Source: a virus
Lineage: Duplodnaviria; Heunggongvirae; Uroviricota; Caudoviricetes
DNA length: 64,000 bases
IMG/VR virus record: IMGVR_UViG_2778261223_000007
Span: 12,132 to 76,131 of that record
Strand: one strand, 5' to 3'
The notes beneath the pieces are model-generated. The model was not told the DNA's origin. It was given only the letters and a program-made list of their open reading frames with translations, and did not search any database. Every line of letters begins with the position of its first letter. Within the stretch, counting starts at the first letter, position 1. A program made the translations under genes and the position numbers. This document shows, one piece after another, positions 1 through 49,358 of this stretch.

Positions 1-1
1 T

Positions 2-1948
2 AAGGATACATTTTTATCCACTGACGAAAACACAAAACAAGTAAAAAAAGCTGTTGAAGACGGCACCAAAAAAACTGTCGATGCGATTCATTCTTTAGGT
101 GAGCAGCTACAAGGCGGGCGTGATGGTGAAGATGGTGTTGGTGAGCACGGGTATACTTCCCCGGCTGAATTTAATGCCCCTACCAGCAACACCATTGCAG
201 CGGATCTGAATATTGGTGGCAGCAACGCCAAAAACCGCAATTACCGGAATAATAATCTCGGCAACCTTGTTTTCGCTAATCAGGAAGGGGCGACGCTGGA
301 AGCACCAAATGCAAAAGGTGAACAACGTTTTGCGCGATTTAACACGCCTGAAGAAGGGATCAGGGCGCTGGCAAACCAGGTGTCAAGCTATTACAACGGC
401 ACCAGCGCCGCTGCTGGGTATCAGAAGCTACAGACGGTATCCAGTATTATTTCCAAATGGGCACCCCCAAAGGAGAACAATACTAATCAATATATTGATA
501 ACGTCAGCAAATATCTTGGCGTCTCGCCTAATGAAAAAATAGACGTCAGCAACCCAGAGGTTATGACGCAATTAGTTCGTGCAATAGCGACGAAAGAAGG
601 TGGAAACCCGGCGGTTAACAATGAGTTCATAAAGAATGCTCTTGGGGCATTTAACACAAATACTGGTCGATGGGAGGGACAATTCTCTGACGAAACATTG
701 GCGCGGATTAATAAAATTCAGAAAGAAAATGGTGGTCAGCTAATTGCCCGCGATTCGCAATATAGTGTTGGTCGCAAGATAAAATATGTTAATGGAAAAT
801 CTCCAGCTCAACCAGTTTTGAATGCCGTTCCGACAGCAACACAACAGCCAATTGAGGTTGCACAACATGCCCAGGCAGTCAAAAAGCCACAAAAAACAGG
901 CAATCAATCGCAACCGATTAATCCAGAGAACGTTGATGTTAATACTGGCTCTCCATCAAGTCTGCTTGAGAGATTAATCGCTATAAATGACAGCGGGGTA
1001 GGTAATTTATTTGGAGGTGCGGCTACCAGCCTTGCTGGTACAAGCCTTGGCCTGATTAAGGATTTTGCGTCGGCGACTTCGTTTGGTTCTATATCTTCGC
1101 TTTCCGAAAAAGCGAAAGGAATGGATCAGGCTCTTACTGAAAAGATATCCAGCTTAACCGGTAAATCTTTTGGATTTCAAAAAGCAAGCCAGGTAACTGA
1201 TATAAGAGACGCTTTACAAAAAAGACCAAAAGCTGAACGCGATATGCCTTCAGTGGATCTTCTTTCCGGTGTTTCTTCGGCAAGTGAGAGTGAAAAAATC
1301 CCTGTAAACTCAAGGGGGATTCCAGTTTATGACAATGGATACAAGGTAATTGATGGTGAAGATAAGGGGGTGCTTGGCTCTTTGTTTGACTCGTCATTAA
1401 CAGGTCTGAAACGTATTAGCTCTGCTGTGTTACCTGCAATTGGCGATAACGTTTCACGACTTATTGGTGGGGTAGATGGCACTGGCATTGTTAATGATTT
1501 GGTTTATCAGGCTACTGGGCAGAACTCAACAATTGCTAGGGCTATTAGCCCGCTTACCAGGAGCGCCGGTAGTTGGCTGAATAATGGTATTCAACAAACC
1601 GCAGATAGCATTAGAGGTATATCAAACGAAGCCAATAATGCCATATTTGGCTCTGCGTCAGCCGTGCAAGAACCTTTTCTTGCTATGCCACCACAGCTTC
1701 CTACTGTAACAGATCTCGCACGAAGCGGAATAAGACAACCATTAACTACTGACACTATAAATAACGATCCTGCTATGTTGAAGGCGCTGGATAACATCTG
1801 CTCTATCCTGAACGATCTTCTGAATGTGAACAAGAACAATACAAAAGGCGATCCGGATAAGGTTGTCAAAACATCGCAGCCGCAACCGCGACCACGTGCT
1901 AGCACAACTATTAATGACCCGTCGCTGGATGCTCTGCTTGAGGATTAA
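2..1948 (+). CDS. sit: Sit-like tail tape-measure / injection transglycosylase, C-terminal part (5' end outside window)
   Basis: Frame 2 is open from nt 2, so the ORF-track Met at 380 is internal. NNNLGNLVF..RFNTPEEGIRAL muramidase-type motif at about nt 245-370. Lies upstream of baseplate and tail-fibre genes as in P1. Confidence 0.65.
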   Translation, partial: KDTFLSTDENTKQVKKAVEDGTKKTVDAIHSLGEQLQGGRDGEDGVGEHGYTSPAEFNAPTSNTIAADLNIGGSNAKNRNYRNNNLGNLVFANQEGATLEAPNAKGEQRFARFNTPEEGIRALANQVSSYYNGTSAAAGYQKLQTVSSIISKWAPPKENNTNQYIDNVSKYLGVSPNEKIDVSNPEVMTQLVRAIATKEGGNPAVNNEFIKNALGAFNTNTGRWEGQFSDETLARINKIQKENGGQLIARDSQYSVGRKIKYVNGKSPAQPVLNAVPTATQQPIEVAQHAQAVKKPQKTGNQSQPINPENVDVNTGSPSSLLERLIAINDSGVGNLFGGAATSLAGTSLGLIKDFASATSFGSISSLSEKAKGMDQALTEKISSLTGKSFGFQKASQVTDIRDALQKRPKAERDMPSVDLLSGVSSASESEKIPVNSRGIPVYDNGYKVIDGEDKGVLGSLFDSSLTGLKRISSAVLPAIGDNVSRLIGGVDGTGIVNDLVYQATGQNSTIARAISPLTRSAGSWLNNGIQQTADSIRGISNEANNAIFGSASAVQEPFLAMPPQLPTVTDLARSGIRQPLTTDTINNDPAMLKALDNICSILNDLLNVNKNNTKGDPDKVVKTSQPQPRPRASTTINDPSLDALLED

Positions 1949-1953
1949 TAAAG

Positions 1954-2328
1954 ATGCTTTATGAAATAGACGCAAGACTTCAAACGAATGAGAGCGGTGT
2001 CATTATTGCAGAAGGAAGTTCCGCAGCATGGATGGCCCGACTTGACGAGTGGCTACGAACCCCTGAAGGGAGTGTTTATGGTTTACCCTCTTGGGGGAAT
2101 CCAATGGAAGAATTTAAGCATGAACCATTCGGCTCTGAAACTTCGCACATAGTTGAAGTGGCTATTGAAGGGAGAATGATGAAAAAACTACGACAAGACT
2201 TGCCAGGTTTGGATGTGCAGGGGATTCGTTGCACATCAATTTCTGAAGATTCTTTATTAATTAGTTTTTATGCGAAAGGTGGGAGCATGGATATTGTTAT
2301 GCAGAAATCAAGTGGGGTGGGCGCGTGA
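1954..2328 (+). CDS. small baseplate/tail morphogenesis protein (PmgA position)
   Basis: 124-aa ORF packed between sit and the bplA-like gene; its stop overlaps the next start (GTGA). Confidence 0.45.
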   Translation: MLYEIDARLQTNESGVIIAEGSSAAWMARLDEWLRTPEGSVYGLPSWGNPMEEFKHEPFGSETSHIVEVAIEGRMMKKLRQDLPGLDVQGIRCTSISEDSLLISFYAKGGSMDIVMQKSSGVGA

Positions 2329-3755
2329 CGATTACAGAATTACTGGACAAATTTAACGCCAAGTTAAATGAAAACACATGGTGGTCACGATTTGTAAATA
2401 GTCAGTTTGTGCAGATGCACGCTATATTCGGATCACAGCTTATTTATATTGCCCGTACATTTGCAAGCCGCGGCCTCACTGAGGGACTTATTTCAACGGC
2501 TACGCGCCGCTCAAGTATTTTAGCGGTTGCTGAAGACCGTAGCTACGTAGGGCGATTTGTTAGTGCTTCATACGGAACAACGTCTATAACCAATAAAACT
2601 GATCGGGATATTACGTTACCAGCCGGGGCTGAATTGCTTGCCAATGACCAAACACCTTTGGCAATTATTAACAGTGTTGTAATTCCTGCTGGAGGAACTG
2701 TTTCTGGCGTAGAAACTAAACAGCATGAAGCTGTTAGCGTTACATTTGATATTGAGAAGGAAACTTTATTTCTGACATTGTTGCTTTCCAGAGAATTAAC
2801 AAAAGAAGTCTCTAGCCTGGATGTTTATGTTATTACAGATGGCGTAGAAGAAAAATGGACATATAACCCATTATTTAGAATGTCCAGAGACAAGAGTAAG
2901 CACTATTCATTGGCATATAAACCTACAGAACAACTTGGAGTCAAGTTTGGTGATGGTTCTATGGGTATGATGCCTCCAGCAGGCTGTCAGGTTCGAATCG
3001 ATGTTATGGCTAGCCTTGGCGACTATACTTTGGCTGAAGGACAAAAGTTAGAACCGGCTGGAAATATCGCTCAATATGTGGAGTCACTAGAGTTTAAAAC
3101 TGATTCGATCATTACCGGTGGTAGTGGTATGGAAACTACAGAAGAAACTCGAAATCGTGCTCAGTATTATGTTGCATACGATGAACAAGTGGTATGGGGC
3201 GGTGATTATCGCCAATTCATTCAGAATGTTGTTCATGGAACTTCATGGTTGAACGTTTGGGGCGAAGCGTTGCAAGAGAAAATAACTGGGTTTGACGTTC
3301 GAAACATCAACAAGATTTTCTTTTGCGGACATAAGCCAGGTGTAAGCCAGGCTCAGCTAAAATCAGAAATACTGAAAGCTCTAGAGAATGTTCCAAATGA
3401 GTTGAACAAGCGGTTTGAGTATGTAGATACAAATGAACAACCATTTACTATAATATTTACAGGTATTGCACGTAAAAATGTTCTGATAGACGACGCTCAA
3501 AATGCTATTAAAGCAGCGTTGGAAGAAAATTTTGGTCGTGATTCGTCATCATTCAGTTTATTACTACAGAGTGATGATGATTCTCAGCAATGTTATGCAC
3601 AGGTAAAAGTTAAAGATATTTGGCGAGTAATAGAGTCGCTGGATATGTTTCTCTCTTATGACATAACAATACAAAATATGAAAGATGCAGTTTACTTTAA
3701 TGACTTCATTTATCTTGACGTGAAATCTTCAACGTTCAGCATTTCTTACCCGTAA
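2325..3755 (+). CDS. bplA: baseplate protein, BplA-like
   Basis: 476-aa ORF with a GTG start overlapping the upstream stop. Size and position match P1 BplA; no catalytic motif checked. Confidence 0.55.
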   Translation: MTITELLDKFNAKLNENTWWSRFVNSQFVQMHAIFGSQLIYIARTFASRGLTEGLISTATRRSSILAVAEDRSYVGRFVSASYGTTSITNKTDRDITLPAGAELLANDQTPLAIINSVVIPAGGTVSGVETKQHEAVSVTFDIEKETLFLTLLLSRELTKEVSSLDVYVITDGVEEKWTYNPLFRMSRDKSKHYSLAYKPTEQLGVKFGDGSMGMMPPAGCQVRIDVMASLGDYTLAEGQKLEPAGNIAQYVESLEFKTDSIITGGSGMETTEETRNRAQYYVAYDEQVVWGGDYRQFIQNVVHGTSWLNVWGEALQEKITGFDVRNINKIFFCGHKPGVSQAQLKSEILKALENVPNELNKRFEYVDTNEQPFTIIFTGIARKNVLIDDAQNAIKAALEENFGRDSSSFSLLLQSDDDSQQCYAQVKVKDIWRVIESLDMFLSYDITIQNMKDAVYFNDFIYLDVKSSTFSISYP

Positions 3756-3765
3756 TGAGGTTAGC

Positions 3766-4611
3766 ATGAAAGATAATTGGCTTAAGGAACGATTAACTAA
3801 AGTAAAACAGGATTCACATCTCTGGAGTGCATTTATAGACGCTTTACAGGATGTCTGGAATGAGGCAGTAGAACCAATATTAACAAGAATAAGTAACAGA
3901 AAATCCTTCTTCACTATGGACAGTGAGGACATGGATGCCCGCATTGCTGAATACGGGCGTTTTTTCGTTATCACTGAAAAAGATAAGGCTCGTAGGCCAA
4001 TGCTGCTGGCACAACGTTTAGATGAAGTGCACTTTAAAGGCACTATCTTGCCAATTGAGCAGACATTCTGGCGTGAATTCGGTTGTATTCCTGTTAGTTG
4101 GGAACCGCTGTATGCACCTGTAAATATAGAAAAACACCCCTATGGTTCATATTTTGCGACCGAAATAGAAATACCTACGGCACAGGCTCAATTCGGTGAG
4201 TTCTTCCTGACATCAAGGGGGCTGGTCGTTGTTGATCAGAACAAGCTATATCGCTCATATGGAGAGCAGGATAAAGAAGCCGCTGTACAGAAATTGTTAT
4301 CTGACTTCGAAACAGTAATAGCCCCTTTATTGCCATTGCATATTGTTTTTGATGGCGTCTCGTTTCGGCTTAGTGCTGTATTCCCTGAAGTGGCAGAAAT
4401 ACTAAATTGCTTGTCTACGGATGTTTCGGTAATTGAAGGTGTTTATGTTACTGAGAGTATGGCTGATATGCTATCCCGTAGTGATACCTCCTGCCAGGTA
4501 GACAATATTTCTCTTAACGCCATACCGAACCGAACGGCAGAAAAGCAATTACATCTTGATGTAACCCCACTCGATGCGTGGCCTTTGGATTACCACCTTC
4601 AACCTGTTTAA
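3766..4611 (+). CDS. baseplate/tail protein (P1 gene 16 position)
   Basis: 281-aa ORF, co-directional, 10 nt after the bplA-like stop. Call is from synteny only. Confidence 0.45.
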   Translation: MKDNWLKERLTKVKQDSHLWSAFIDALQDVWNEAVEPILTRISNRKSFFTMDSEDMDARIAEYGRFFVITEKDKARRPMLLAQRLDEVHFKGTILPIEQTFWREFGCIPVSWEPLYAPVNIEKHPYGSYFATEIEIPTAQAQFGEFFLTSRGLVVVDQNKLYRSYGEQDKEAAVQKLLSDFETVIAPLLPLHIVFDGVSFRLSAVFPEVAEILNCLSTDVSVIEGVYVTESMADMLSRSDTSCQVDNISLNAIPNRTAEKQLHLDVTPLDAWPLDYHLQPV

Positions 4612-4646
4612 TAATTCCTCCCCCGCATTTGGGGGAAGAACAACGG

Positions 4647-4667
4647 AAATCACAAACTGAGCATACT
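4647..4667 (+). promoter_or_regulatory. candidate late promoter AAATCACA-AACTGAG-CATACT
   Basis: One of 8 copies of AAAT(C/A)ACA-N7-YAYNNT. The -10 ends 39 nt before the R start codon. Confidence 0.55.
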
Positions 4668-4705
4668 CTCCTTTGGTTCATTGCTTATGAAGGAGCTATG
4701 TTCGT

Positions 4706-5152
4706 ATGGCTGAAAATTTAAAGGCAAGAGATGGTAACCGCCTGTATAAGGCACAATTGCTTTCCTACTATTATTCACGCCGCGCTGAGTCGGCGATCGG
4801 CAAAGGTGCGCGTTTTGTTATCTCTAAGGCGTATTGGTGCAAATCTAGTCTGGTAACTGCTAATGGTGCAGGAGGCTGGAATATAGCGGACATTCCACTC
4901 GATTTTAAATTGAGTGACGCTCAACAGTTTGCTGTGTCCGATCTGATATTGTCCAGCGTGGATGGGATTATCACTATCAATGCAGCCTTCCCACAAGAAA
5001 GAATGCCGGATAACACGCCTTACGATTTTAACACGCTTGTGCTTGTTGATGCTGAGGAACGGGCTTTTGGTGTGCTTTGCACCCAGCAAGATACCCTCTA
5101 TAAAGGTAAACGTTACAGTATTCTCATGACAATCGAGCAAGTTGAGGGTTGA
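4706..5152 (+). CDS. R: tail-fibre-associated protein R
   Basis: 148-aa ORF immediately upstream of and overlapping the S start; position of P1 R. Confidence 0.5.
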   Translation: MAENLKARDGNRLYKAQLLSYYYSRRAESAIGKGARFVISKAYWCKSSLVTANGAGGWNIADIPLDFKLSDAQQFAVSDLILSSVDGIITINAAFPQERMPDNTPYDFNTLVLVDAEERAFGVLCTQQDTLYKGKRYSILMTIEQVEG

Positions 5153-5154
5153 TT

Positions 5155-8154
5155 ATGGGGGCTGATAAAACGAACAACATAATGACACTATCCTCTGGTG
5201 TCTCACAGCCTTTGCTTGCTGATGTTCAATATTTCGAACTCTATAGTAGTTCGGCTCTTAACAGAAAACTTAAAAATATTGTTTTGCCTGGCTTTTACTG
5301 TGGATTTGAACCAGTTCCCGGCACAGGGTTGAGTGTTCGTATAACTTCTGAAAACTCAGAAGGTAAAGGGGCTGCTTCAGTAGATGTAAATAATGTTCAG
5401 ATATCCGTTCAGCAAATAGAAGATGTGACTGTCTCGGTAAAGGCTGGGGCTACCAACATTATTGTGCTGGAAGCCAATTTTGAACATGGTGTAAAAACGA
5501 CACAGGTAGATAGCGCATCTTCTGTCAGTGCTGCAAGAATTTACGCGCGTACGGACAATACTATTGGGCAGAATCAAATTGAATTATGTCGAGTTATCGT
5601 GCCTAACGGCGCAACGGCTGTGACTAAAGAAATGATTGTGCTTAAATACCGGGTTAACCGTGCTGTTGGTGTCGAATTCTCTAATGAAATAAGCAGTACA
5701 GAAGAAAGAAAAGCGGCTACACCTCTGGCTGTCAAAACTCTCCATGATTTGGTTGATACAAAAGCTCCGCTCGATAGTCCGCATCTGTCAGGTACGCCGA
5801 CTTCGCCGACACCTGAACCCGGTACAAACAACACACAGATCGCAAATGCGGCCTTTGTCTATGCTGCTATAAATGCGCTTATCAATGGTGCTCCGGGAAC
5901 GATGGACACGCTGAAAGAAATAGCGGCTGCGATCAATAACGACCCGAATTTCAGCACAACTATCAACAATGCCCTGGCTCTTAAAGCTCCTTTGGCAAGC
6001 CCGGCGTTCACAGGTACGCCGACAGCACCTACGGCCTCACAAGGCACAAATAGCACGCAGATTGCAAATACAGCCTTTGTTAAGGCAGCTATAACGGCAC
6101 TTATCAACGGTGCGCCTGGCACACTGGATACGCTGAAAGAAATAGCGGCTGCGATCAATAACGACCCGAATTTCAGCACAACTATCAACAATGCCCTGGC
6201 TCTCAAAGCGCCTTTGGCAAGCCCTGCATTAACGGGTGTCCCTACTGCGCCGACCGCCGCACAGGGCACAAATAATACGCAGATTGCTACGACCGCTTAT
6301 GTAAGAGCTGCCATATCCGCATTGGTTGGTTCATCACCAGAAGCTCTTGATACCCTGAATGAGCTTGCCGCAGCACTTGGCAATGACCCGAACTTTGCGA
6401 CAACAATGACAAATGCGCTGGCAGGCAAACAGCCTCTGGATGCAACTTTAACCGCGCTCGCTGGCCTTGCGACTGGTGCAAACAAACTGCCTTATTTCAC
6501 CGGTAAGGATACGGTAGCGCAGACTGATTTAACGTCAGTCGGTCGCGATATTCTGGCTAAAACAAGCACACTGGCCGTTATCCAATACCTTGGTTTAAGA
6601 GAACTCGGTACCAGTGGTGAAAAGATCCCCCTGTTGAGTACGGCTAACACATGGAGTGCGCGCCAGACTTTCAATGGCGGGATCACCGGGGCGCTGACAG
6701 GGAACGCCGACACCGCGACGAAATTGAAAACAGCCATAAACATTAATGGCGTCAGGTTCGATGGTTCGGCTGACATTAATATCAATACTCTGGTATCGCG
6801 TGGTCGCGTAACGGCTCTGGGGGCGAATGCACAGGGGACATCCGGGATTCAGCTGTATGAGGCATACAACAATGGCTATCCTTCCCCCTATGGCAATGTG
6901 CTTCACCTTAAAGGTGCCACCGCTGCTGGCGAAGGTGAATTATTCATTGGCTGGAGTGGCTCGAGCGGTGACCATGCGCCCGTACATATCCGTTCGCGGC
7001 GTGATACTGATTCTGCCAACTGGTCTGAATGGGCACAGGTCTATACGTCAAAAGATTCAGTTCCCGGCGTTAATGCCAAAGGGAATCAGGATACCTCTGG
7101 TAATGCGGCTACAGCGACCAAATTGCAGACGGCGTGTACTATCAACGGTGTCTCGTTTGATGGTTCTAAAAACATTGAGCTAACGGCGGAAGATTTAAAT
7201 CTTGAGCAAACCGTAGAATTAGCCGCAGGAGCATTGCAGAAAAACCAGAACGGTGCAGATATTCCGAATAAAGATAAATTCATACAAAACACAGGGGCCT
7301 GTCGTGCATTTAGCGGTCAGACTGATATCGATGGTTCACAAGGTGAATGGTCGACAGTTGCATTTATCTCGTGGCTGGAGAATAACGGAGCTTTCCGACA
7401 TCCATACTGGATGTGTAAAGGGTCATGGTCCTATGCCAGAAACAGGGTTATTACGGATACCGGTTGTGGAAATATCTGCCTTGCCGGAGCCGTGATTGAG
7501 GTTATGGGAACCCGCGGCGCAATGACCATACGCGTTACCACGCCGAGCACGTCCAGCGGTGGCGGAATCACTAACGCTCAATTCACTTATATTAATCATG
7601 GTGATGCTTACGCTCCTGGCTGGCGACGAGACTACAACACGAAAAACCAGCAGCCTGCATTTGCTTTAGGGCAAACAGGACGCAGGGTCGCAAATGATAA
7701 AGCTGTTGGCTGGAACTGGAATAGCGGCGTTTATGATGCAGATATCAGTGGCGCATCGACATTAATCCTCCACTTTAATATGAATGCGGGGAGTTGCCCT
7801 GCTGTACAGTTCCGCGTGAATTACAGAAATGGCGGTATCTTTTATCGTTCAGCGCGTGATGGTTATGGCTTTGAAGCTAACTGGTCAGAGTTTTACACCA
7901 CAACACGCAAACCCTCTGCGGGAGATGTTGGTGCATATACGCAGGCAGAATGTAACTCAAGGTTTATTACAGGTATTCGCCTTGGCGGTCTGTCATCTGT
8001 TAAGACATGGAATGGTCCTGGCTGGTCTGACAGGTCAGGTTATGTCGTTACTGGTTCAGTTAACGGAAACCGTGATGAATTAATTGATACAACTCAGGCA
8101 AGGCCAATTCAGTATTGCATTAATGGAACGTGGTATAACGCGGGGAGTATTTAA
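5155..8154 (+). CDS. S: tail fibre protein S (constant part fused to the currently expressed variable part Sv)
   Basis: ATG 5155 with a GAGGG SD overlapping the R stop (the ORF track uses TTG 5149). N-terminus ADVQYFELYSSSALNRK resembles P1 S. Contains fibre collar repeats, and the ORF crosses the cix site at 6578-6603. Confidence 0.9.
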   Translation: MGADKTNNIMTLSSGVSQPLLADVQYFELYSSSALNRKLKNIVLPGFYCGFEPVPGTGLSVRITSENSEGKGAASVDVNNVQISVQQIEDVTVSVKAGATNIIVLEANFEHGVKTTQVDSASSVSAARIYARTDNTIGQNQIELCRVIVPNGATAVTKEMIVLKYRVNRAVGVEFSNEISSTEERKAATPLAVKTLHDLVDTKAPLDSPHLSGTPTSPTPEPGTNNTQIANAAFVYAAINALINGAPGTMDTLKEIAAAINNDPNFSTTINNALALKAPLASPAFTGTPTAPTASQGTNSTQIANTAFVKAAITALINGAPGTLDTLKEIAAAINNDPNFSTTINNALALKAPLASPALTGVPTAPTAAQGTNNTQIATTAYVRAAISALVGSSPEALDTLNELAAALGNDPNFATTMTNALAGKQPLDATLTALAGLATGANKLPYFTGKDTVAQTDLTSVGRDILAKTSTLAVIQYLGLRELGTSGEKIPLLSTANTWSARQTFNGGITGALTGNADTATKLKTAININGVRFDGSADININTLVSRGRVTALGANAQGTSGIQLYEAYNNGYPSPYGNVLHLKGATAAGEGELFIGWSGSSGDHAPVHIRSRRDTDSANWSEWAQVYTSKDSVPGVNAKGNQDTSGNAATATKLQTACTINGVSFDGSKNIELTAEDLNLEQTVELAAGALQKNQNGADIPNKDKFIQNTGACRAFSGQTDIDGSQGEWSTVAFISWLENNGAFRHPYWMCKGSWSYARNRVITDTGCGNICLAGAVIEVMGTRGAMTIRVTTPSTSSGGGITNAQFTYINHGDAYAPGWRRDYNTKNQQPAFALGQTGRRVANDKAVGWNWNSGVYDADISGASTLILHFNMNAGSCPAVQFRVNYRNGGIFYRSARDGYGFEANWSEFYTTTRKPSAGDVGAYTQAECNSRFITGIRLGGLSSVKTWNGPGWSDRSGYVVTGSVNGNRDELIDTTQARPIQYCINGTWYNAGSI
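5764..6429 (+). repeat. three tandem 222-bp (74-aa) tail-fibre repeats inside S
   Basis: Unit APLxSPxxTGxPTxPT..GTNxTQIAxTAFV..LINGAPGTLDTLKEIAAAINNDPNFSTTINNALALK. Units 1 and 2 are near-identical at DNA level over about 120 bp (5878 versus 6100, offset 222). Confidence 0.9.
6578..6603. other. cix recombination site inside S (TTATCCAATACCTTGGTTTAAGAGAA)
   Basis: 26-bp Hin/Gin/Cin-type crossover site, inverted relative to the copy at 10843-10868. Sequence homology between the two arms begins exactly here. Confidence 0.85.
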
Positions 8155-11852: not shown

Positions 11853-12298
11853 TGGGTAACTTTGGAAATTATTTCATTTTTATCATGGCATTTGTTGCCA
11901 TCATTGACCGTTTCATTTTTCGTCGCAAGAGTGTTGAGATTTTGAGTATTGGTGACGCTGTAGTGAAAGAATCCGCTATAGCATTTCCTGTTTCGCTACG
12001 TGTTAAGCGAAGCTGGGTGAGCAATGCTCAAATCGAATATTGGTTGCAAGACCTGAAAAATCCATCTGTGGTTATTTCAGGGAAAACGCGACCAGTTGAC
12101 GCCTCAAAACGCGGTGAGAGAGAAGAGTATTTGCTCATCGATACGAAATATCTTGAGCCAACGAAGTGGGATCTGAAAGTCACATTGACTAACGGTAACT
12201 GCCGACTGAATCCGCTTTATCGCATTTTCCCTATCAATGACTGCATAGAGCGCCAATTTACGATCGAAAAGCGTGAAGGAGACTGGGATGTCAAATAA
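11852..12298 (+). CDS. membrane-anchored protein (LydD position)
   Basis: 148 aa with an N-terminal TM helix (NYFIFIMAFVAIIDRFIF); ATGA-type overlap with the upstream gene. Confidence 0.4.
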   Translation: MGNFGNYFIFIMAFVAIIDRFIFRRKSVEILSIGDAVVKESAIAFPVSLRVKRSWVSNAQIEYWLQDLKNPSVVISGKTRPVDASKRGEREEYLLIDTKYLEPTKWDLKVTLTNGNCRLNPLYRIFPINDCIERQFTIEKREGDWDVK

Positions 12299-46043: not shown

Positions 46044-46820
46044 GTGGAAAATACTAAAGCAATTCAATACCGCTTGCGTAATGGCCTGCTGGTGGCTGTT
46101 AACGCCGACATGTCACTGCCGTTTGACACGATTGAACGCACTATCATGACATATCTCGGCTTTAATGAAGAACTGAATGAAGAGCATGGCGTAGCTATAT
46201 GGAGCGATGCAGAAAGCGGCGTTCATCGTTACATCACCGCCAGGGGCAAAGACTACTCTCTGGAAGAACTGTTTACCCTTGCACAGTCTTTCGAATGTGT
46301 AGCATTAGACATGTTTAATGATCCTGCTATAGCGCAACGACTTATACGCGAGCTTGGGCTATCCGTTACACCAATTATCTTTAAGAATGGCAGCCTGACT
46401 GGCACATGGCGCGTAGAACGCATCTCAAACTACCTTCCATATAACCGACAGTTAAATGGAGTAATCTCCGGCGTTAATCAGCCCGTAGCGTGTGAAAATG
46501 TAAACCTGGTTGTCGCTGTTTTGGCAACCGCATGTCGTGTTATCGGTTTGGCTAAACAGGCATTTATTCATTTCCCAAATGGTGCAGAAGGTAGCGCAGA
46601 GATTATCGCGTGTGATTTCGAATTTACCTGGATGCTACGCGAATATCTGGACCAAACAGTATTCCGTGCCGAAGAACTGGATATGTATATCACGTCAACG
46701 ATTCCAGACGATGTGCGAGCAGAAGCAATCGCTACAGCCAGGGCGAAATGCCGTGCGGCGATTGCAGAACGGGCCAAAGAAGAACAGTCCAATGATACAG
46801 CGGCAGAAGAGGTGGAATAA
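46044..46820 (+). CDS. hypothetical protein
   Basis: 258 aa, GTG start; last gene before the terminator. Confidence 0.5.
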   Translation: MENTKAIQYRLRNGLLVAVNADMSLPFDTIERTIMTYLGFNEELNEEHGVAIWSDAESGVHRYITARGKDYSLEELFTLAQSFECVALDMFNDPAIAQRLIRELGLSVTPIIFKNGSLTGTWRVERISNYLPYNRQLNGVISGVNQPVACENVNLVVAVLATACRVIGLAKQAFIHFPNGAEGSAEIIACDFEFTWMLREYLDQTVFRAEELDMYITSTIPDDVRAEAIATARAKCRAAIAERAKEEQSNDTAAEEVE

Positions 46821-46824
46821 CAAA

Positions 46825-46853
46825 AAGCCCGCTTGGTATGGCGGGCTTCTTTT
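46825..46853. terminator. intrinsic terminator between convergent operons
   Basis: AAGCCCGC-TTGGTATG-GCGGGCTT followed by CTTTT. Confidence 0.75.
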
Positions 46854-47050
46854 CAAATACTGGAAGCACTTTGTCTGCTACCAAGCATTCTCTGTTTAAG
46901 CACAACCATTTCCTGACGGCATAACACAGCAATAGCGGTCCTGGCACCAATTTGCTTACCAACCAGGTATTGCTTTACCTCGCGGCGACTCACGCCATCA
47001 AGAAGCATCTTTAACGCTTCACGGGACAACTTGTTGTATTTACGTGCCAT
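46853..47050 (-). CDS. small HTH-like protein downstream of doc (pdc position)
   Basis: 65 aa from ATG 47050, 8 nt after GGAG (the ORF track starts at 47071). Confidence 0.4.
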   Translation of the reverse strand: MARKYNKLSREALKMLLDGVSRREVKQYLVGKQIGARTAIAVLCRQEMVVLKQRMLGSRQSASSI

Positions 47051-47054
47051 TAAT

Positions 47055-47435
47055 CTACTCCGCAGAACCATACAATCTACGTAACGTGTCGGCGACAGAA
47101 GATACAGATATCTCGCCAGTCGCAGCGCCTACAGTAAGGTCTGCCAGTTCAGGTGAATCAAATACCTGAACCCCGTTACGGCGTAGAAATAGCAGCGCAC
47201 TGTTTAGCGCGGTACGCTTATTGGCATCATTGAATATATGCCCTCTCGCTGTAGCCACCAGGTAGGTGGCGGAGACTTCGAAAAGGTCGCTGATCTCTTC
47301 GTAGGCAACTCTGGCCTGAACTCTCCCGATAATGGCCTCTGCCCTACCCGGATCTGACATTCCCGGCAGGCCACCGTAGCGGCTTATATTCGCATCATGA
47401 AGCGCAATAAGTTCTTCCGGTGATATATGCCTCAT
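47055..47435 (-). CDS. doc: Doc toxin (Fic-fold kinase)
   Basis: 126 aa with [11 protein letters not shown] Fic motif; essentially the P1 Doc sequence from memory. Confidence 0.95.
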
Positions 47436-47656
47436 TATCGGTTAACCAGTTCCTTGTTGGTGGAGTCCAGGGTGTCAAACAGGGATGCAAATTCGGCATC
47501 CAGCGCCGCTTTTTTGTAGGCTTCAAAAGTAGCCTTGCTAACAATTACTGCTGGCTCACGGCCTCTGCGGGTGATTTCAACCTCTTCCCCGGCTTCAACA
47601 TTGTTGAGCACTTCAGAAAGGTTGCCGCGCGCGGTACGGAAGTTAATGGATTGCAT
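47435..47656 (-). CDS. phd: Phd antitoxin
   Basis: [40 protein letters not shown] matches P1 Phd. The stop overlaps the doc start by 1 nt. The ORF track adds 2 codons. Confidence 0.95.
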
Positions 47657-47764
47657 AAACACCTCGTGTGCTCGTTATGTGTACGCAATTATAGGTTTTA
47701 ATGATGCTGAATACCACTTCTTGGTGCCTTAAATCCTCGAGATGCAGTCTTGCAATTGCTGGGA

Positions 47765-48187
47765 TTAAGCAGAATAAGTGGTTGGAATTCTGAGCAGTAA
47801 TCCAATCTTGGCTATGTGCTCATATGGCAGCTCTCCGGTTTTACCGTCATGTATCGAGGCTATCAGATTCAATTCTTGCGCCGCTTTACGAATTTCAGTT
47901 TCTGATGGAACAAGGCGAAAACCGATGTGTAACATTTTGATATAGAAAGGTAATAGTTCGTACTTCACCCGTAACTGTGCTGCCGCATCTTTCAAATCAT
48001 GGATGATTTCTTGTTTTAAGTCAGAGCGGGGATTCGATAGCTTTGCTTGGTTAGACAATAACAGATGCGATATTTCCCCCAACTGTTCCTTGAATGAAAT
48101 GTAAGACTCAACCCCCTTGATGATGAGTCGACCTAGGACAAAAACGCTTACTCCAGTGACAACAGTGACAAAAGCAGACGAACTCAT
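47765..48187 (-). CDS. membrane-anchored protein of unknown function (insert between humD and phd)
   Basis: 140 aa. N-terminal TM helix SSAFVTVVTGVSVFVLGRLII followed by a helical cytoplasmic part; lower GC by eye. Confidence 0.55.
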   Translation of the reverse strand: MSSSAFVTVVTGVSVFVLGRLIIKGVESYISFKEQLGEISHLLLSNQAKLSNPRSDLKQEIIHDLKDAAAQLRVKYELLPFYIKMLHIGFRLVPSETEIRKAAQELNLIASIHDGKTGELPYEHIAKIGLLLRIPTTYSA

Positions 48188-48321
48188 TCGCGTACCTAAA
48201 AAGAGAATTATAACCTCATCTTATCTTCAAGTGAGTAACCGCGTCTAATGGGAGGAATCATTTAAATGGCCAGGGCGATATAGATCCAGTCATGCCTCTC
48301 TATGGTTTCTCTGAAAACAAA

Positions 48322-48711
48322 TCATATAGCAGGACTATCATCAAATTCACCGCCCCTGGCGTCATTGATAATGTGGGTGATCACACCAAAAACAGCATTA
48401 CTACCCGTGTAACCATCGTCATCTACTGGTAACGCCTCTTTCTTCCCGGTGCTTAAATCCTCCAGGTGCTGGCGCGGATACTTCCGGTATCTTTTTACGC
48501 GATATTCCCCCTCCATAGCGCATATAAGCAGTGAGCCATCAACCGGAGTAAGTGAGGAATCAACCACCAGCAAAGCACCCTGCAATATTCCCTCACGGTG
48601 ATGGCTATCAGCTGCCCGCATGAAGTAGGTTGCTGATGGATGTCTAATTAGTTGCTGATCAAGAGAAATTCGGCTTTCAACATAATCCGCCGCAGGAGAA
48701 GGGAAGCCCAT
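48322..48711 (-). CDS. humD: HumD, UmuD'-like SOS mutagenesis protein
   Basis: 129 aa, S24 peptidase-like (LLVVDSS..GSLLICAMEGEYRVKRY); LexA box upstream. Confidence 0.85.
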   Translation of the reverse strand: MGFPSPAADYVESRISLDQQLIRHPSATYFMRAADSHHREGILQGALLVVDSSLTPVDGSLLICAMEGEYRVKRYRKYPRQHLEDLSTGKKEALPVDDDGYTGSNAVFGVITHIINDARGGEFDDSPAI

Positions 48712-48729
48712 AGCGTTTTACCTCAATGA

Positions 48730-48749
48730 TACTGTTTATTCATACAGTA
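48730..48749. promoter_or_regulatory. LexA (SOS) box TACTGTTTATTCATACAGTA
   Basis: CTG-N10-CAG palindrome 19 nt upstream of the humD ATG. Confidence 0.85.
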
Positions 48750-48901
48750 TACATTGAAAAGGCATAGTTTGTGAAAGCGGGGTTTGTAAGCAACGCCGCT
48801 GGCGGCAAGGTCTACGTTCACCTTGTCTCGCTCTTCCTGGCTTTTAGCTGCTATATTTCGATCTGACACAAGAAACCTCCAGGAGTTAGTGGATCAGGCA
48901 C

Positions 48902-49252
48902 ATGCACAATAACGTTCTCAATGTTAGCCGTTCAATTCAGACAATCAGAGACTGCACCAGTGTGGTGGCATCAATCCCATTGCGAAACAGCATAGACGAA
49001 CTGCAAATTCGTGTATTGAATCTGAATCAGGCTAATAAGCAATTGCGCTTTATTTTGACGCTGAAAAGTGAAACAGAGGGGATAAAGCACAGCGTAAAAG
49101 TGTTTTCTGAGGCCATTCTGCTTAATGGGAAGCTCCGGCATCTAGTAAGGCCAGAACGTCAATATCCTGACGTCCTGGCGCGTGAAAAAGACCTTCTTTC
49201 TGAAGTTCAGGATAGGGTGATCGATTTCGTCAAATGCTATCCCCTGCATTGA
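48902..49252 (+). CDS. hypothetical protein (weak call)
   Basis: 116-aa ORF with no obvious SD; convergent with the leftward operon; a hairpin follows at about 49262-83. Confidence 0.3.
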   Translation: MHNNVLNVSRSIQTIRDCTSVVASIPLRNSIDELQIRVLNLNQANKQLRFILTLKSETEGIKHSVKVFSEAILLNGKLRHLVRPERQYPDVLAREKDLLSEVQDRVIDFVKCYPLH

Positions 49253-49358
49253 GGGCAGGTGTTCCCTTCCGCAAAGTAGGGAAAACTGCTATCAAGTTCA
49301 TCACACCATCTGCGATGGTCGTAGCACCAAAACGCCTCCCACGGTGCACGGAAATACT

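Follow-up and report, generated by a model that had tools for sequence, protein, structure and literature searches.

Background

In phage P2 the genes fun(Z), tin and old are accessory and non-essential and occupy fixed variable sites of the temperate phage; the prophage expresses them, which leads to the exclusion of other phages. Other described systems consist of membrane proteins. HK97 gp15, P22 SieA and T4 Imm are short, moron-encoded membrane proteins, made in the lysogen or in early infection, that stop phage DNA entry at the inner membrane, and lambda RexB and P22/lambda SieB are prophage-encoded membrane proteins that halt phage growth and that, in lambdoid phages, are transcribed independently of the lytic operons. 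Here we analyze orf109, a gene coding for a protein of 140 amino acids (aa) in a stretch of 64,000 nucleotides from a virus of the Caudoviricetes (positions 12,132 to 76,131 of the IMG/VR record IMGVR_UViG_2778261223_000007), the whole of which we call the window, and we compare it with these systems.

The comparison with P2 is one of location. Homologs of orf109 are found in P2-like prophages in exactly the two sites where fun(Z), tin and old reside. The products are unlike in size when compared by annotation, Tin having 253 aa, Old, an AAA-family ATPase/exonuclease, 586 aa and Fun(Z) 528 aa, against 140 aa for the orf109 protein; furthermore, none of the three P2 proteins is annotated as a membrane protein, unlike the topology predicted for orf109. 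As in the case of HK97 gp15, SieA and Imm, orf109 is a single gene without a partner, but HK97 gp15 has only 62 aa, whereas the orf109 protein is predicted to consist of one transmembrane helix and a 115-residue cytoplasmic four-helix bundle. RexB has four transmembrane helices and needs its partner RexA, while orf109 has a single predicted transmembrane helix and no partner.

A preliminary description of the window, made from its sequence, had taken orf109 for a moron, perhaps with a defense or exclusion function, inserted at a gene junction that is contiguous in phage P1. The moron reading is strongly backed by our results, as the homologs are solitary genes at accessory sites of unrelated prophages and plasmids. 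We find that orf109 is a genuine, selected and horizontally acquired accessory gene, and that it entered the D6 (P1g2) phage-plasmid lineage by recombination at the humD/phd junction. Its family is mobile, in the form of a single-gene cassette, between temperate phages, phage-plasmids, conjugative plasmids, a mobilizable element and an integron-like array, and the preferred addresses of this family include both phage-exclusion gene sites of P2. From its sequence, orf109 can be classed as a phage/plasmid moron that would encode a small membrane protein.

Results

An extra segment between humD and phd in phage D6

The window is phage D6 itself, the stretch 46800-49300 being 100% identical to Escherichia phage D6 (NC_050154/MF356679). 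According to the listing of open reading frames (ORFs) and the D6 annotation, the order of genes on the minus strand is pdcA-like, doc, phd, the 140-aa ORF, humD and a truncated hot. The D6 annotation enters the orf109 product as YP_009914786.1, 'hypothetical protein'. The features of the locus, in window coordinates, are the following.

47765-48187, minus strand: orf109 coding sequence, 140 aa (423 bp); ORF listing and D6 annotation
47694-48325, no strand assigned: D6-specific segment of about 632 bp with a guanine-plus-cytosine (GC) content of 41.8%; blastn break points against P1 and RCS47
48322-48711, minus strand: humD (UmuD'-like), upstream neighbor of orf109; ORF listing and D6 annotation
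47435-47656, minus strand: phd antitoxin gene, downstream neighbor of orf109, 97.9% identity to P1; D6 annotation mapped to the window
47055-47435, minus strand: doc toxin gene; ORF listing, D6 annotation and P1 alignment
47688-47693, minus strand: -10 hexamer TATAAT of the phd promoter Pphd, kept from the P1-like sequence; P1 annotation of Pphd mapped through the alignment
47716-47745, no strand assigned: putative humD-like remnant of 29 nt; local alignment and repeat-family search (family D1)

The phd start at 47662 given in the preliminary description is a GTG located upstream in the same frame.

The distance between humD and phd is 72 bp in P1 and RCS47, a spacer that holds the Pphd promoter, and 665 bp in D6, where orf109 lies inside. 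In pairwise blastn, D6 and P1 are homologous over 46869-47693 (97.9% identity) and again from 48326-48332 onwards (92-93%); therefore, about 632 bp (47694-48325) are specific to D6. Of the spacer in P1 and RCS47, about 39 bp are replaced by this segment. Its left break coincides exactly with the upstream edge of the -10 hexamer of Pphd, and its right break falls within the last three codons of humD. The break points and the 72-bp spacer confirm the claim that a 140-aa ORF has been inserted at a humD/phd-doc junction that is contiguous in P1. The lower GC content that had been judged by eye was also verified by measurement, being 0.418 in the insert and 0.421 in orf109; phd, doc and humD have 0.50, 0.52 and 0.487, respectively, and the window as a whole has 0.473. 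The near-identity to P1 that had been stated for the flanking genes held on the phd side, at 97.9%, but not for humD, which at about 93% is not nearly identical.

Two of the properties by which a moron is recognized are found at this locus: the gene lies between neighbors that are adjacent in related phages, humD and phd in P1 and RCS47, and its composition differs from that of the genes at its sides (GC content of 0.418 for the segment versus 0.487-0.52). A homolog in P1 itself had been named in the preliminary description as the finding that would speak against an insertion. Among 50,697 phage records, only the two D6 records were matched by the segment in blastn and by the protein in tblastn. 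As tblastn matched D6 alone, P1 is without an orf109 homolog anywhere.

Evidence that orf109 is a selected gene

An in-frame stop codon is present 12 codons upstream of the orf109 ATG and no standard start codon lies between them, which fixes the ATG at 48187. Codon-level comparison of orf109 with E. coli plasmid homologs of 66-74% amino-acid identity gave dN/dS (nonsynonymous to synonymous substitution rate) values of 0.20-0.30. In 22 complete E. coli genomes and in 34 PLSDB plasmids of 75-120 kb, the D6 allele and segment show an identity of 98.8-100%. From this length and from the shared humD-orf109-phd-doc arrangement, we take the carriers of the D6 allele to be D6-like phage-plasmids. The exact orf109 protein sequence is found on at least 1000 contigs.

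Distribution and neighborhoods of the homologs

A copy of the gene is present in 334 of the 5426 complete E. coli genomes (about 6%), and 336 of its 341 places in them are on plasmids. In PLSDB, 346 plasmids have a copy, 264 of them conjugative. The homologs were always solitary at the loci examined. Two neighbors were considered as possible partner genes, a 159-aa divergent neighbor on ColV plasmids and a 126-aa neighbor on plasmids of the pECO-b75 type, but both are lineage-specific, and no conserved partner gene was found around the homologs.

In a P2-like prophage of Klebsiella, the homolog lies between the replication gene A (gpA) and the portal gene Q, beside a ParE/helix-turn-helix pair. 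In the P2 annotation this interval between gene A and portal gene Q is the old/tin locus, which has been described as an anti-phage hotspot (PMC9122126). In a second P2-like prophage the homolog is found between the tail-fiber assembly and tail sheath genes, on the opposite strand. This is the site where P2 has fun(Z), annotated as 'blocks growth of T5'. In two divergent sets of lambdoid prophages the homolog is antisense to the genes on either side of it, which are replication genes (lambda-P or DnaB) on one side and the nin/Q genes on the other, and in a phage-plasmid of Serratia it follows the tail-fiber genes.

On 47-kb plasmids and on IncF and ColV-type plasmids, the homolog stands beside insertion sequence (IS) elements, RelE/ParE, CcdAB and DinQ-like toxins, and the microcin J25 or aerobactin loci. 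A further homolog heads an array of small ORFs on the same strand, including BrnT and Phd/ParE (Logan SRR31724201 contig, 1-5535). The ORFs of this array are set apart by repeats with attC-like ends (GCCTAAC ... GGGCGTTA), and the arrangement looks like an integron array. Finally, on a mobilizable element the homolog is located between the gene of a 1309-aa STAND NTPase and integrase/relaxase genes.

The adjoining gene on this integrase/relaxase-bearing element is an observation in its own right. The 1309-aa nSTAND_NTPase5 protein, encoded at 294-4223 of an ENA metagenome scaffold, had no match in PADLOC and may represent an uncatalogued STAND-type defense gene.

A large family of hypothetical proteins

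A profile search over 1.84 billion representative proteins, clustered at 50% identity, reached 1010 clusters with E<=1e-3, of which 228 had E<=1e-10. Among the best 150 matches listed, almost all proteins have 130-160 aa and are aligned over most of the profile. Judged by this search, orf109 belongs to a large uncharacterized family of at least 1000 clusters. The members that carry a name are all 'hypothetical protein' and come from Enterobacteriaceae, Plesiomonas, Nitrosomonas and other Proteobacteria.

Among the library families, the orf109 protein falls only into PHROG 7512, which carries no functional annotation. The match is full-length (E 1.2e-77, residues 1-140 to profile positions 1-141), but this PHROG covers only the close phage-borne relatives and not the whole family. 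Scans of Pfam and NCBIfam with the D6 protein yielded no family at E<=10, and ten distant relatives gave nothing above the Pfam or NCBIfam threshold and no Pfam domain. Sequence searches of PDB with two profiles returned chance-level matches only, and a search of BFVD returned no match at E<=1. The best match found by Foldseek in PDB was 2huj, a Listeria protein of unknown function (E 0.04, TM-score 0.44-0.48). A literature search by protein accessions and PHROG identifier, whose scope did not take in the D6 genome paper of Gilcrease and Casjens 2018, found no paper discussing orf109, and the gene is not mentioned in the D6-like Salmonella paper.

One family member of 231 aa, on a Logan contig, has its last ~25 residues exchanged for a tail of ~115 aa. 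By eye this tail looks like the C-terminus of a group II intron maturase, so that an intron may have inserted into the gene.

Predicted topology and structure of the orf109 protein

One further feature lies within the coding sequence.

48119-48175, minus strand: single predicted transmembrane helix, codons 5-23 of orf109; Kyte-Doolittle

The maximum of the 19-residue Kyte-Doolittle window is 2.19, at residue 5. A second hydrophobic segment was not found in the family, the median of the next-best window being 0.95 in 137 relatives. In these 137 proteins the N-terminal tail has a median of 4 aa, and the mean number of lysine and arginine residues is 0.2 in the N-terminal flank versus 2.25 over the 15 residues that follow the helix. 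This charge bias across the helix leads to a predicted topology with the N-terminus outside and the C-terminus inside. The orf109 protein is thus predicted to be a bitopic inner-membrane protein, with a short periplasmic N-terminus and a cytoplasmic bundle.

AlphaFold, run with an alignment of 47 sequences, gave a model with a predicted local distance difference test score (pLDDT) of 94.1 and a predicted template modeling score (pTM) of 0.84, containing helices at residues 2-45, 59-77, 96-113 and 121-132. The long helix 2-45 of this model is the membrane helix running on into the first helix of the bundle. The same architecture was obtained with an alignment of 11 sequences, with a pLDDT of 85. 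The model therefore predicts a cytoplasmic four-helix bundle of ~115 residues continuous with the membrane helix. The N-terminal transmembrane helix followed by a helical cytoplasmic domain, proposed in the preliminary description, is in this way supported by the predictions from Kyte-Doolittle, charge bias and AlphaFold.

The most conserved positions of the family are found in or just after the membrane helix (G12, Q20 and P28); Y82, P94 and L132 are conserved as well. This peak of conservation in the membrane helix suggests that the helix does more than anchor the protein. Separately, the part of orf109 that codes for the transmembrane helix contains a perfect 9-nt tandem duplication (CAGTGACAA x2, 48154-48171), which encodes a repeated VT/VVT motif.

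Structure and variability of the junction

While the -10 hexamer of Pphd has been kept in D6, the -35 region of P1 has been exchanged for sequence from the side of the insert, with TGGT kept at the same 17-nt spacing. Adjoining this -35 position, just downstream of orf109, is the stretch 47716-47745, which aligns in the same orientation with the internal humD sequence 48441-48469 at 24 of 29 identical positions. The score of this alignment is 31, compared with 15.2 +/- 2.1 for 300 shuffles, whose maximum was 23. The insertion is thus less than perfectly clean, and we read the 29-nt stretch as the remnant of a second humD-like copy. No terminal repeats or target duplications were found at the ends of the insert, only the humD-like remnant, which suggests that orf109 was brought in when elements with humD recombined, and not by a simple insertion.

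Plasmid pTB423 (NZ_CP034790) and phage Cyrano (OV696614) have downstream of humD, instead of orf109-phd-doc, a gene of ~365 aa on the opposite strand. The site is therefore a variable junction in the P1/D6 group. In Cyrano the ~365-aa gene has a MinD-like annotation, and a gene for methionyl-tRNA synthetase comes after it.

Two other observations concern the surroundings of the locus. The D6 hot gene, coding for a homolog of the DNA polymerase III theta subunit (48723-48869, minus strand), is truncated to 48 aa. It begins with 29 residues in common with RCS47 Hot, the N-terminus of P1 Hot being longer; after these residues the sequence diverges, and its reading frame runs into the LexA box and promoter of humD. 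D6 is without about 190-216 bp that RCS47 has in the hot region (3847-4038 of the compared RCS47 stretch), the break being at a short TTTGTA(A/G)GC microhomology; D6 hot is probably a deletion-derived pseudogene. At the other end, between the convergent isaA-like and pdcA-like genes, a GC-rich hairpin with A/T runs on either side (aaaaagcccgcttggtatggcgggcttctttt) is located at 46819-46889. It is probably a bidirectional terminator. The only Rfam match at 46819-46889 is a sub-threshold Trp_leader, with 26.4 bits against a gathering score of 41.

Sequences that may govern orf109 transcription

The position of orf109 downstream of the LexA-regulated humD had led to the proposal that it could be SOS-induced. 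The sites relevant to this question are the following.

48732-48747, no strand assigned: LexA box CTGTTTATTCATACAG; pattern search, aligns with the annotated P1 LexA site
48746-48775, minus strand: sigma-70 promoter-like site TTCACA-18-TATACT; consensus scan
48207-48212, minus strand: -10 of a candidate orf109 promoter of its own, perfect TATAAT, 19 nt upstream of the orf109 ATG; sequence reading

The LexA box is the only perfect CTGT-N8-ACAG in the window and lies 21 nt upstream of the humD ATG. The promoter-like site, the -10 of which overlaps the LexA box, is likely to be the SOS-controlled promoter of humD. No terminator-like site was detected by scanning 47300-49000, and transcription from humD could therefore continue through orf109 into phd-doc. 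The hairpin downstream of orf109 is modest (z = -1.8) and is followed by no T-run; Rfam found nothing inside the insert, and the folds of the intergenic RNA are unexceptional. SOS induction of orf109 through read-through from humD is consequently plausible. However, no LexA box exists within the insert (47694-48325), even when one mismatch is allowed, and orf109 has a TATAAT of its own, so that transcription independent of SOS is equally possible. A constitutive, low expression of orf109 would fit the sequence equally well.

Discussion

orf109 is a well-supported accessory gene of an already sequenced phage, publicly annotated as hypothetical, and as such it will be no surprise to a specialist. 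What it does has to be approached through its context. The explanation that we favor, tentatively and at somewhat less than even chances, is that orf109 codes for a phage-exclusion protein expressed by prophages and plasmids, which would act at the inner membrane either by blocking DNA entry or as an effector of abortive infection. We are led to this explanation by the occupation of both exclusion-gene sites of P2, by the antisense moron slot of lambdoid prophages and by the cassette-like mobility of the gene.

According to this proposal, the protein would be made in the lysogen or in the plasmid carrier, and it would shield the cell, and thereby the element, from other phages at the inner membrane. 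The conserved membrane helix, with G12, Q20 and P28, might contact a component of the inner membrane or self-associate. The outcome would be either that entry of the incoming phage DNA is blocked (superinfection exclusion) or that the membrane is damaged in an abortive infection. In D6, orf109 would be transcribed from its own weak promoter and probably also by read-through from the LexA-controlled promoter of humD, which would raise its level during SOS. A more far-reaching version makes orf109 the D6 member of a new, widespread family of single-gene anti-phage systems at the inner membrane across Proteobacteria, whose helix would block DNA entry or trigger membrane failure, and which in D6 would be wired to SOS by the humD read-through, exclusion rising as prophage induction approaches. 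In this full form we regard the proposal as rather doubtful.

Several observations weigh against phage exclusion. To reside in a hotspot is a prior and not a proof, and in a 2026 study of P2/P4 only 15-32% of the P2 genes of unknown function were predicted to be antiviral (PMC13586616). No model of PADLOC-DB v2.0.0 matches the orf109 protein at E<=10 (0 of 5027). When the family profile of 47 sequences was compared by hhalign with known exclusion proteins, the probabilities were 0.6% for SieA (P22), 0.1% for SieB (P22), 0.2% for RexB (lambda) and 1.5% for HK97 gp15. A PADLOC scan of ten immediate neighbors of homologs found no known defense gene and one weak trypsin-like match; the homologs are thus associated with hotspots and toxin-antitoxin genes rather than with recognized defense systems. 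Several homologs of environmental bacteria are found in ordinary-looking chromosomal neighborhoods, for example with Cu-oxidases, chorismate synthase and tyrS. Finally, the best -35 for the TATAAT of orf109 at a 17-nt spacing is CTCACT, a weak sequence matching at 3 of 6 positions, and for this reason the candidate promoter was not reported by the consensus scan.

Some of these same observations would be expected if orf109 were a lysogenic-conversion gene unrelated to phage, whose membrane-anchored bundle alters the physiology of the host envelope (stress tolerance, transport, signaling or colonization) and so helps the carriers of the element. The environmental neighborhoods and the missing link to recognized defense genes in the ten neighbors scanned would both fit, as would the frequency of the gene near the aerobactin, sit and microcin loci of ColV-type virulence plasmids and the fact that the best fold-level similarities include four-helix bundles of sensors and receptors. 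We nevertheless hold such a role to be unlikely, because the same single gene recurs at the exclusion-gene sites of P2 and antisense within lambdoid early regions, and no metabolic or virulence partner gene is conserved. The protein might instead be an orphan immunity protein against a membrane-acting toxin of competitors (a bacteriocin, a microcin, or an effector of a contact-dependent or type VI system). At none of the loci examined does a cognate toxin gene adjoin the homolog, no immunity family appeared in the Pfam, NCBIfam and PDB searches, and the domain is predicted to face the cytoplasm. Many immunity proteins are small helical bundles, and orf109 is small, membrane-anchored, solitary, highly mobile and rich on plasmids; there is also a homolog near the microcin J25 genes on p1108-IncFIB, and another in the cassette arrays. 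On balance, an immunity function seems to us quite improbable.

The two other explanations look to D6 itself, and to both we give little credence. orf109 might serve the element, in lysis timing, in DNA entry or establishment, in plasmid maintenance, or through the neighboring phd-doc or humD modules. It lies between an SOS gene and an addiction operon in the same orientation, with no terminators found, and its insertion took out the P1 -35 region of Pphd, so that read-through from orf109 could alter phd-doc expression. But P1, P7, RCS47 and SJ46 manage without orf109, and homologs have entirely different neighbors, including those on non-phage plasmids and in chromosomal cassette arrays, or lie antisense to the lytic operons of lambdoid and P2-like prophages; a service to the element is in our opinion very unlikely. 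Least probable of all is that orf109 is a hitch-hiker without a selected role in D6, brought there by the recombination that left the humD-like remnant. The remnant of 29 nt does lie beside orf109, and in the P1/D6 supergroup the sequence that follows humD varies through recombination. However, dN/dS is 0.2-0.3 against the plasmid homologs, every D6-like record found has an intact ORF with 98.8-100% conservation, and both length and motifs are kept over at least 1000 clusters.

Conclusions

orf109 is a cheap and well-defined target, being one gene of 423 bp, and a D6 lysogen in C600 is available. Even without a role in defense, its family comprises at least 1000 clusters and has a confident structure model and no Pfam entry. 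If phage exclusion by the orf109 protein is true, a very compact, single-gene system acting at the level of the membrane would be added to the defense catalog. Its gene already occurs in about 6% of complete E. coli genomes, and hundreds of IncF plasmids with virulence or resistance genes carry it as well. A further consequence would be that the humD/phd junction serves as a slot for accessory genes in the phage-plasmids of the P1/D6 group.

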